The notes beneath the pieces were generated by a model, which was not told the origin of the DNA, ran no database searches, and worked only from the letters and a program-made list of their open reading frames with translations. 64,000 nucleotides of DNA from Scenedesmus sp. PABB004 (taxonomy: Eukaryota): contig JABVCE010000031.1 of assembly GCA_014905635.1 (NCBI GenBank), positions 62,001 to 126,000 on the forward strand. The letters are read 5' to 3'. Numbering within the stretch: position 1 is the first letter of the stretch; the number at the start of each line of letters is the position of its first letter. Below, piece by piece: positions 33,201 to 36,200 of the stretch. Made by a program: the position numbers and the translations under genes.

Positions 33201-36200
33201 TTGAGGAGGGATGTGTGTGTGGGGGGGGGGGAGGTGGTGGGCGCGGGCTCGCAGCGGGGGCGCGCGCAGGGCCTGCGGCTGGCGGCGCGGGCGGGCGGTC
33301 GACGACGACGCCATCGCTCACTGCGGCGGCCTCGTCTCGACCGCCCGCCCGCGCCCCCGACCGCTCGTCAACGCTCGCCGCCTCGACCCTCTCCCCTCTT
33401 GAACCCCGCTCCCGCCCTTTACCCCCCACACCCACACAACCCGCCCTCACCCCTCACACACCCCCAACCCCCCCCCCCCCCCCCCCACACACACACACAC
33501 GCACACGCGCGCAACAGGTCGTCGCGGCGCGCGCCGACTTTAAGCTCATCGTCACGAGCGCCACGCTCGACGCGGCCAAGTTTGCGACCTTTTTCGGCAA
33601 CGCCCCCGTCTTCCACATCCCGGGGCGGACCTTCCCCGTCGACGTGCTCTGGTCGCGCACGCCGCAGGAGGACTACGTGGAGGCCGCGGTCAAGCAGGCG
33701 CGCGGAGGGGGCGCGGCGGGGGTTAGGGGGCTTGGGGGGTTGGGTGAGGGCTGGGGGGGGGGCTTGGTGAGGGCTGCGCCCCTGGCCAGGGTTGAGCGAG
33801 GCGGGAGGGGCGCAGCGGCGGCGCTCGCGCCCCACGCGCCTCACCGACCCTGGCCGCGCCGCGCCCCGCCCCGCTCCACGCACCACCCCCCCCTTCCTGC
33901 GTGCAGGCGCTGACGATCCACCTGCGCGACCCGCCCGGGGACGTACTTATCTTCATGACCGGACAGGTGCGCGGACGCACCTGAGGCGCGGCGGATTACG
34001 TTGGTCAACCAGCGGGCGGGCGCGGTTTAGCGGGCGGCGGGGGCCCTAAACCCTGGGCCCTTCCCGTCCAGCCCCGCGGAGGGCGCCGCAGCCGCGGCCG
34101 CCCTCCTCGTTCTCGCCGGCGAGAAGGTGCCCGCCCGGCGGGGACGAGGAGGGCGGCCTGCCGCCGCCGCCTGCTGCCGCCGTCGCCGCACTGCTGCCGC
34201 CGTCTCGCCGCCGGGCAGGCAGCGGCTGTAGCTGTCCGGCGACGACATCCTGACGCGTCGTTGCTGGGCAGCTACAGCTGCTGCCTGCCCGGCGGGGACG
34301 GGGAGGGCTCCCCGCTGCCGCGCCGCCGACCCGGCCGCCCTGCCCCTCCTCGCCTCGCTTCTGCCGGGCGGGGACGAGGAGGGCGGCCCGCTGGGGTGTT
34401 GAATCCTCCTGAGACCTCCCCCCTCCCAAACACGCACACACACGGACACACCCACACACCCACACCCAAACACACCCACACCCCCACCACCCACACCCAC
34501 CCACACACACACACAAACACACACCCACACACACCACACACCCACACACCACACCACACACCCGCAGGAGGAGATCGAGGCGACCTGCTTTGCCCTGTCG
34601 GAGCGCCTCGACCAGATGCGCAGCGGCGGGCAGGAGGTGCCGCCGCTGCTCATCCTGCCCATCTACAGCCAGCTGCCCAGCGACCTGCAGGCGCGCGGCG
34701 CGGCGCGGCGCACGGCGGGCGCGGCGGGCGCGGGCGCTGCGCGTGGGGGGCGCTGGCGCGCGGCGCGGGGCGCGCGCGGGCGCGGGGCGTGGGGGCGCTG
34801 ACGCGCGGCACGGCGGCGTGCGCGCGGGGGCGCGGCGCGGCGCGGCGGGGGCGCGCCCTGCCGCCGCGCGCCCTGCCGCCCCTCTCTCTCTCTCTCTCTC
34901 TCTCTCTCTCTCTCTCTCTCTCTCTCTCTCTCTCTCTCTCTCTCTCTCTCTCTCCCTCTCTCTCTCTCTCTCTCTCCCTCTCTCTCTCTCCCTCTCTCTC
35001 TCTCTCCCTCTCTCTCTCTCTCTCTCCCTCCCTCTCCCTCTCTCTCTGCCCTCCCCCCCCCCCCCCCCCCCCAACACCCACCCACCACCCACAAACCACC
35101 CTCACACCCCCAACACACCCCCAACACACGCCCAACACACATCACCCCCGCAGGCCAAGATCTTTGACAAGGCGCCCGAGGGCAGCCGCAAGGTCATCGT
35201 GTCGACCAACATCGCGGAGACGAGCCTCACCGTGGACGGCATCTTTTATGTGATCGACACCGGCTACGTCAAGATGAAGGTCTACAACCCAAAGATGGGC
35301 ATGGACGCACTCCAGGCGCGTGTTACTGTGTTATTGTGTTGTGTTATTGCGTCATGTTATTGTGTTGCCTTTTGCGTCGGCGCGCGTCTGTTGGGGTTGC
35401 TGATTGGCCCGGCCCACGGCGCGCGCGTCTCCGGGGCGTGCGCTCGGCGCGCCCGGCGTGCTGCTGCCCCCCCCCCCTCCCCTCCCCCACACACACACGC
35501 CCGCCCCCTGCCCGCCGCCCGCAGGTCTTCCCCGAGAGCCAGGCGGCGGCCAACCAGCGCAGCGGGCGCGCGGGGCGCACCGGGCCGGGCACCGCGTACC
35601 GCCTCTTCACGGGTGCGCGGGGCGGGGTTTAGGGGCCCTGCGCTGGGCAGGGTTTTGGCGGCGGCGGCGGCGCGGGCGGCCGGCAGCGGCCGCGCTGCGG
35701 TCGCGGCTGCGGCGGGGGCTCCCTCGCGCGCCGCCGCGGCGCCTCGGGGGCGGTGGGTGCAGTTGCTCAGGTGCTGGAGCCCCTCGGCCCCTCAACCGCA
35801 CTCACCGCCCCCGAGGCGCCGCGGCGGCGGCGCTGAGCCGCCGCGCCCGCAGCCCTCTCTCCCCTTCCCCCTTCCTACCTCCCTCCCGCACCCAGCCCGC
35901 CCGCACCCTGCCCACCCGCACCCTGCCCACCCCTCCTCCTCCGCCCTTACCCCAAACCGCCGCCCCCCACACACGCCCACCACCACGCCCGCGCAGAGAC
36001 GGCGTTCAAGCACGAGCTGCTGGCCACGAGCGTGCCAGAGATCCAGCGCACCAACCTCGCCAACGTGGTGCTGCTGCTCAAGTCCCTCAACGTCGACGAC
36101 ATCACCGCGTTTGACTTCATGGACCCGCCGCCCCGCGAAAACATACTCAACTCGATGCACCAGCTCTGGGTGCGGCGGGCCGCGGTTGGCCGTCTTGCGC

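Follow-up and report, generated by a model that had tools for sequence, protein, structure and literature searches.

A cluster of near-perfect stem-loops in an intron of a PRP16-type helicase gene of a GC-rich chlorophycean alga, and its possible origin by local duplication

The 64,000-nucleotide window analysed here (positions 62,001 to 126,000 of contig JABVCE010000031.1, Scenedesmus sp. PABB004, assembly GCA_014905635.1; coordinates below are those of the window, and features lie on the + strand unless stated otherwise) comes from a chlorophycean alga and has a GC content of ~79% overall and 73–84% in each 2-kb bin. A listing of open reading frames gave little at 80% GC. Between ~27.3 and ~38.8 kb the + strand carries a DEAH/RHA helicase gene split into many short exons, in whose frames HA2_N, HA2_C and OB_NTP_bind scored above the Pfam cut-offs. 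The nearest database relatives of the encoded protein are ‘RNA helicase’ proteins of Tetradesmus obliquus (five hits), and a tblastn search with one of them, P0005, recovered the conserved exons at 76–100% identity. By sequence comparison the gene is of the PRP16/DHX38 type, its best match being PRP16 rather than PRP22, PRP2 or PRP43; this assignment is made through the orthologue P0005, because it scores higher to human PRP16 (1280.9 bits) than to DHX8 (848.8 bits). Our subject is a block of hairpins (34083–34397) within one intron of this gene, together with the further hairpins found in its other introns.

The host intron (33967–34567) is 601 nt long, in phase 0, and has GT...AG borders (CAG/GTGCGC ... 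CCCGCAG/GAG). The 63-nt exon upstream (33904–33966) aligns to P0005 at 90% identity in tblastn and ends ...LIFMTGQ, the exon downstream (34568–34693) aligns at 86% identity and starts EEIEATCF, and the two are contiguous in P0005 (residues 890/890). A sequence-only reading of this DNA had labelled it intron 15, which is reasonable because fifteen exon blocks map upstream by homology, the first three of them less certain. The 3′ part of the intron holds an AG-free C/A tract of 152 nt (34414–34565; C 90, A 56, G 4, T 2) that reaches the 3′ splice site, and a CTGAGAC (34409–34415), the last branch-point-like motif ahead of the tract, is a putative branch point. In the preceding intron lies a G/T-rich tract with runs of 5–10 G (33700–33775), opposite in composition to the C/A tract, and the two tracts flank the 63-nt exon.

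Three hairpins occupy the block. In hairpin B (34205–34298) the core arms 34208–34246 and 34257–34295 pair at 39 of 39 positions (35 Watson–Crick and four G-U pairs, no mismatch) around a 10-nt loop, and the stem reaches 44 bp (34205–34248/34255–34298) when one G:G mismatch is tolerated. Hairpin A (34096–34158) has a stem of 24 bp and a loop of 15 nt, its arms (34096–34119/34135–34158) pairing throughout with 22 Watson–Crick and two G-U pairs. Within its 3′ arm stands a 22-mer of 86% GC (34137–34158) that recurs exactly at 34367–34388, and a related 20-mer closes hairpin B at 34288–34307. Both stems, the repeated 22-mer and its relative had been claimed from the letters alone, and each was reproduced when arms and matches were recounted. 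The second 22-mer copy belongs to the 3′ arm of hairpin C (34326–34395), a decayed duplicate of A whose arms (34326–34354/34367–34395) are 76% complementary. A C-rich spacer with three CTGCYGCCGCCGYC repeats (34158–34204; repeat family D5) separates A from B. The 10-nt loop of B (34246–34256) contains a branch-point-like CTGAC, and AGs of the host intron at 34276, 34377 and 34380 fall within stems.

Folded as sense RNA, hairpin B reached −99.3 kcal/mol (z −13.3, against −10.7 for the − strand) and hairpin A −64.0 kcal/mol (z −7.3, against −5.3), with 0 of 200 shuffles equal in either case; the fold z was −8.85 for the block and −10.96 for the entire host intron. Hairpin C was no better than its shuffles (z −2.7, 3/200). 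The longest mismatch-free stem in ten Markov simulations of the window measured 16–21 bp, and at up to three mismatches the 22-mer has four matches in the 64 kb, all within the host intron, where 100 shuffles gave 0.00. Chance or low-complexity artefact as the source of the hairpins was ruled out by the shuffles, the Markov simulations and the fold z.

Repeat search and alignment reveal how the block is put together. A 40-nt motif, D3, is present three times (starting at 34128, 34282 and 34358) and its partner motif, D4, twice (34083 and 34320). Hairpins A and C both consist of D4 plus D3, and are therefore duplicates of one unit. The third, diverged D3 copy (34282–34321), which contains a variant of the 22-mer with three mismatches (34291–34312), overlaps hairpin B: the palindrome ends at 34298, within this copy, and the D3 copy continues past it. 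With 44-nt arms, a spacer of 6–10 nt and a boundary independent of the boundaries of neighbouring repeats, hairpin B has the near-perfect inverted repeat, short spacer and unrelated edge looked for in products of template switching or inverted duplication.

The block thus reads as a probable composite of young local duplications in a normal spliceosomal intron. A hairpin unit with D4 as its 5′ arm and D3 as its 3′ arm would have been duplicated, one copy (A) staying near-perfect and the other (C) decaying. In B, the outer portion of the 3′ arm would be the third D3 copy, and the 5′ arm may be an inverted copy of that 3′ arm, made in place by replication template switching or fold-back synthesis. 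Because the edge of the palindrome lies inside a D3 copy, B appears to have been made where it stands and not inserted as a mobile element. Replication template switching is, in our view, the likely builder of both the direct and the inverted duplications, although the step itself is deduced from their arrangement. In the sense pre-mRNA, the block would fold as three side-by-side helices, collapsing ~315 of the 601 nt and probably leaving the 5′ splice site ~140 nt from the CTGAGAC that precedes the AG-free tract; the enlarged intron would therefore stay spliceable. We favour this account with evenly balanced confidence: the palindromes would be young and made locally, would fold within the pre-mRNA and compact an enlarged intron, and would be slowly decaying.

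That the block is instead a non-autonomous mobile element, either of the miniature inverted-repeat transposable element (MITE) or foldback type or introner-like, inserted into the intron or partly creating it, has some appeal. Its ends are imperfect inverted repeats (34096–34126/34358–34388; 31 nt, 84% complementary), its size (293 bp between these ends) is near that of a 285-bp segment common to two other introns of the gene, and algae are known to have introners and related transposons that generate introns (PMC9860276). The terminal repeats are, however, accounted for by the duplication that relates A and C; no further copy of the block occurs within the 64-kb window, and no convincing target-site duplication accompanies it, so that the combination of terminal repeats and duplicated target expected of a MITE or foldback element is lacking. 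Nor does the block behave as an introner, since it makes up 293 of 601 nt, the 5′ splice site lying 129 nt before its start and the 3′ splice site 179 nt past its end. Inspection of 12 hairpins of the gene found neither common termini nor common sequence, and no consistent target-site duplication. A scan of metagenome contigs for the 22-mer returned 12 loci, each matching over 22–27 nt; one of them, L007, added low-complexity matches of 44–60 nt at 80–84% identity, its 22-mer match lying inside an open frame of 638 codons. As relatives of the block these loci were rejected, being read as chance matches in GC-rich DNA. Membership of the block in a MITE or introner family is thus not supported by sequence comparison, and we consider a mobile origin unlikely.

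Across ten hairpins of the gene, the sense strand has 274 Watson–Crick, 15 G-U, 6 A-C and 6 other pairs; A and B by themselves account for seven G-U, one A-C and one other among the non-Watson–Crick pairs. Paralogous hairpins (A/C, 31575/31701 and 30121/32794) differ solely by one-sided or loop changes, and comparison of these three pairs by eye found no compensatory change. Most of the pairing of hairpin C has been lost. The pattern fits decay from perfect palindromes, in which stems would erode through one-sided substitutions, chiefly to G-U on the sense strand. Between A and C, conservation is far higher in the 22-mer arm than in the arm it pairs with. The substitution pattern could also fit selection on a single arm, or recent copying of a short tract.

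The block is part of a wider concentration. With low-complexity arms removed, all 10 mismatch-free + strand stems of at least 18 bp in the window fall at 29913–37320. We also scanned all 1,598 windows of 120 nt for structure, with 10 dinucleotide shuffles each, taking as the gene part those scan windows that start in 29300–38000. At z ≤ −5 we found 17 of 217 scan windows in the gene part against 4 of 1,381 outside it, two of these four being a (GT)n tract, and at z ≤ −6 the counts were 12 and 2. The Fisher odds ratio for enrichment in the gene part was 29, with a p-value that is only indicative because the scan windows overlap. Structured scan windows occupy 9 of the 18 mapped introns, chiefly long ones, and amount to about 12 strong hairpins, unrelated in sequence except for local duplicates, with almost none in the remaining 56 kb. 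This gene-wide enrichment in a PRP16-type gene is new context for the block. The process that built the block, or selection for its products, would have filled half of the introns of this gene with unrelated palindromes.

Besides the block, hairpins of the same gene and strand lie at 29908–29984, 30121–30205, 31575–31672, 31701–31789, ~31868–31927, 32794–32884, 33275–33364, ~33761–33880, ~34841–34960, 35729–35829 and 37249–37325. Two of them belong to the ~285-bp segment that two introns of the gene have in common (29965–30245 and 32647–32929; 88% identity), each copy of which carries a hairpin of 25–31 bp (30121–30205; 32794–32884) and passes into CT-rich sequence ahead of the 3′ splice site; the two copies have identical stems and much more diverged loops. 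Outside the helicase gene, the sole other strongly structured places are 53981–54123, where a 42-bp stem encloses a 59-nt loop (53981–54022/54082–54123), and ~6881–7000 (z −5.8 for the scan window at 6881). A (GT)n/(GC)n microsatellite at 18031–18183 earns a false ‘hairpin’ score via G-U pairing.

Several observations weigh against an origin by local duplication followed by simple decay. Judged by GC at codon positions, non-coding-like DNA amounts to ~15 kb outside the gene part and ~5 kb inside it, and mutation alone leaves the scarcity of hairpins in those ~15 kb unexplained. G-U pairs exceed A-C pairs by 15 to 6 (15/21, one-sided p 0.039). The fold is more stable for the sense than for the antisense strand, both in the block (−244.6 against −233.4 kcal/mol) and in hairpin B (−99.3 against −83.7 kcal/mol), which is a further sign of constraint but at the same time supports the favoured account of palindromes folding in the pre-mRNA. 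The 22-nt identity between A and C is embedded in units that are otherwise 47–59% identical in alignment, for which the simulated probability of an identical run of 22 nt was 1e-5 to 2e-4; a rough estimate that takes the clearly homologous portion as 80% identical rises to ~0.09. The G-U excess and the exact 22-nt identity are both hints that the sense RNA, or that arm, is constrained. In addition, the order in which duplication was followed by inversion and then by decay is reconstructed from one sequence, and compaction of the intron by its hairpins is a role predicted from the fold.

Such constraint might be expected if the hairpins were functional intronic precursors of small RNAs, either microRNA (miRNA)-like or giving hairpin small interfering RNAs (siRNAs), cut by a Dicer-like enzyme from the pre-mRNA or the excised intron, with the 22-mer arm as mature product. 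Stems A and B provide the fold-back of such a precursor (a duplex of ~21 bp with few mismatches), the 22-mer arm is exactly kept between A and C where its partner is not, the G-U bias favours the sense transcript, and miRNAs derived from introns have precedent in Chlamydomonas (PMC4817775). On the other side, the comparison of paralogue pairs revealed no compensatory changes and one copy, C, has decayed, while a dozen unrelated hairpins in one gene suggest a structural or mutational cause over sequence-specific guides. Near-perfect stems of 39 bp usually yield heterogeneous siRNAs and not one miRNA, which also counts against a discrete product. No site complementary to any 21-mer of the arms with at most two mismatches occurs elsewhere in the window; complementary sites with three mismatches number eight, all in low-complexity GC-rich sequence, a number that stands without a chance baseline. 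Among the matches listed, a search for literature on Dicer and Argonaute in Sphaeropleales offered nothing usable.

Rfam returned no match at gathering score across the whole window. Its sub-threshold hits were all to miRNA-shaped models, animal and viral miRNAs included, and speak for the small-RNA reading as evidence of shape only. The best reached 45 bits, where the gathering score is 88, and membership of a known miRNA family was rejected, these hits being read as generic hairpin shape; a small nucleolar RNA or other known intronic RNA was likewise ruled out, with nothing at gathering score. As Dicer substrates the hairpins are possible on the modelled structures, since a Dicer-like enzyme could accommodate a stem of 39–44 bp, and small RNAs from them would on that ground be a plausible by-product of locally generated palindromes. 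We regard a dedicated small-RNA function as a doubtful but genuine possibility.

Selection might also act on the structures themselves. The hairpins would in that case be cis-acting controls of splicing or expression that hide cryptic AGs, display the CTGAC within B's loop, or expose the pre-mRNA to Dicer in a negative feedback of the kind described for MIR838. The confinement of strong structure enrichment to this gene speaks for such a role, as do the sense-strand G-U bias, the position of the CTGAC and the burial of the three AGs; Mut6, a silencing helicase of Chlamydomonas, is cited as having PRP16 for its homologue (PMC4295849), and feedback has precedents in DCL1/miR838 and PpDCL1/miR1047 (PMC4429486). 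Against it, the substitutions resemble decay and not maintenance, and most Chlamydomonas host mRNAs of intron-derived miRNAs were unaffected by loss of DCL3 (PMC4817775). Among the matches listed, literature on intron structure and branch points in green algae provided nothing usable. We rate selected cis-acting control as very unlikely. An extended form would make the PRP16/Mut6-type gene a dedicated host of at least 12 double-stranded RNA hairpins in nine introns, cut by a Dicer-like enzyme. The gene would serve both as a polycistronic source of small RNAs and as a self-limiting sensor, cleavage of introns competing with splicing and so coupling the level of a splicing and silencing helicase to Dicer activity. 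That proposal resembles DCL1/miR838, multiplied across a whole gene and placed in another component of the pathway, and we think it improbable, if attractive.

Other features of the gene and its surroundings lie apart from the hairpins. At the homology-mapped exon ends 31152, 33154, 34693 and 35315, several introns apparently begin with GC, not GT (AG/GCGCG...). Three tandem copies of an exon end with the adjoining 5′ splice site (…GTCAACTGCCGCACG/GTGAGG) occupy 37715–37875, the true junction being 37735/37736; the others end near 37806 and 37873, and they might act as decoys or alternative donors. The neighbours recognised by Pfam are all on the − strand: an RRM protein (1941–3875), an Orn/Lys/Arg decarboxylase (39917–41216) and a diaminopimelate epimerase (48259–49648). 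Gaps between the matched coding frames are short, at ~85 nt for the decarboxylase and ~205 nt for the epimerase.

If these hairpins are merely palindromes made by replication, they would offer a clean natural example of perfect intronic stem-loops arising and then decaying, and perfect stem-loops of this kind are raw material for new small-RNA genes. The part without explanation is why a dozen unrelated hairpins should be concentrated in the introns of one spliceosomal helicase gene, the Chlamydomonas homologue of which is reported to act in silencing (PMC4295849). Should the introns prove to yield small RNAs, the biogenesis of intron-derived miRNAs would extend past Chlamydomonas to Sphaeropleales-like algae, and a feedback loop joining splicing to silencing would be suggested.

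Among known systems, several share parts of this architecture. Structured yeast introns contain ‘zipper stems’ that shorten the distance between 5′ splice site and branch point, and the block resembles them in that stable helices separate the 5′ splice site of an over-long intron from its presumed branch point; the role is here a predicted one, for which much shorter and less perfect stems would be enough. Introners, MITE-derived introns and fungal introner-like elements (Gozashti et al. 2022, PMC9860276) likewise bring repeated, structured sequence into introns. Unlike introners as characterised there, the block is single-copy in the window, makes up half of its intron, supplies no splice sites and has no target-site duplication. 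Template switching has been reported to make perfect hairpins de novo (Monttinen et al. 2023, 10.1101/2023.04.19.537475) and to homogenise the arms of inverted repeats (PMC13100816). Near-perfect inverted repeats with a short spacer are features in common with our locus, where in addition the palindrome edge cuts a pre-existing repeat copy and the arms differ by a few transitions; the clustering of hairpins in one gene, by contrast, is not predicted by that model as far as these sources present it.

A further analogue is found in the DCL1 genes of Arabidopsis, where intron 14 contains the MIR838 hairpin, and of Physcomitrella, where intron 7 contains miR1047; excision of these hairpins lowers the host mRNA (PMC4429486). 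As there, the hairpins studied here sit in introns of a gene for RNA-processing or silencing machinery, and excision could lower the host mRNA because the hairpin lies in an intron of such a gene. The differences, within what that source describes, are that the host is a PRP16-type splicing helicase, that a dozen hairpins are present and not one, and that the locus is known from its DNA sequence; the link of the host to silencing is by homology to Mut6, cited second-hand (PMC4295849). By analogy, the nearest known kind appears to be the intron-derived miRNA or hairpin siRNA of Chlamydomonas. In C. reinhardtii, nine high-confidence miRNAs derive from introns, splicing and cleavage by DCL3 are separate events (Valli et al. 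2016, PMC4817775), and an intronic stem-loop yielded a working miRNA (PMC4817775). Like the DCL3-dependent miRNAs described there, our hairpins are sense-strand stem-loops with stems of Dicer length in a spliceosomal intron of a chlorophycean protein gene. They differ from the Chlamydomonas precursors, as that report portrays them, in stems that are longer and more perfect, in having no Rfam miRNA family at threshold, and in the presence of several unrelated hairpins across many introns of a single gene.

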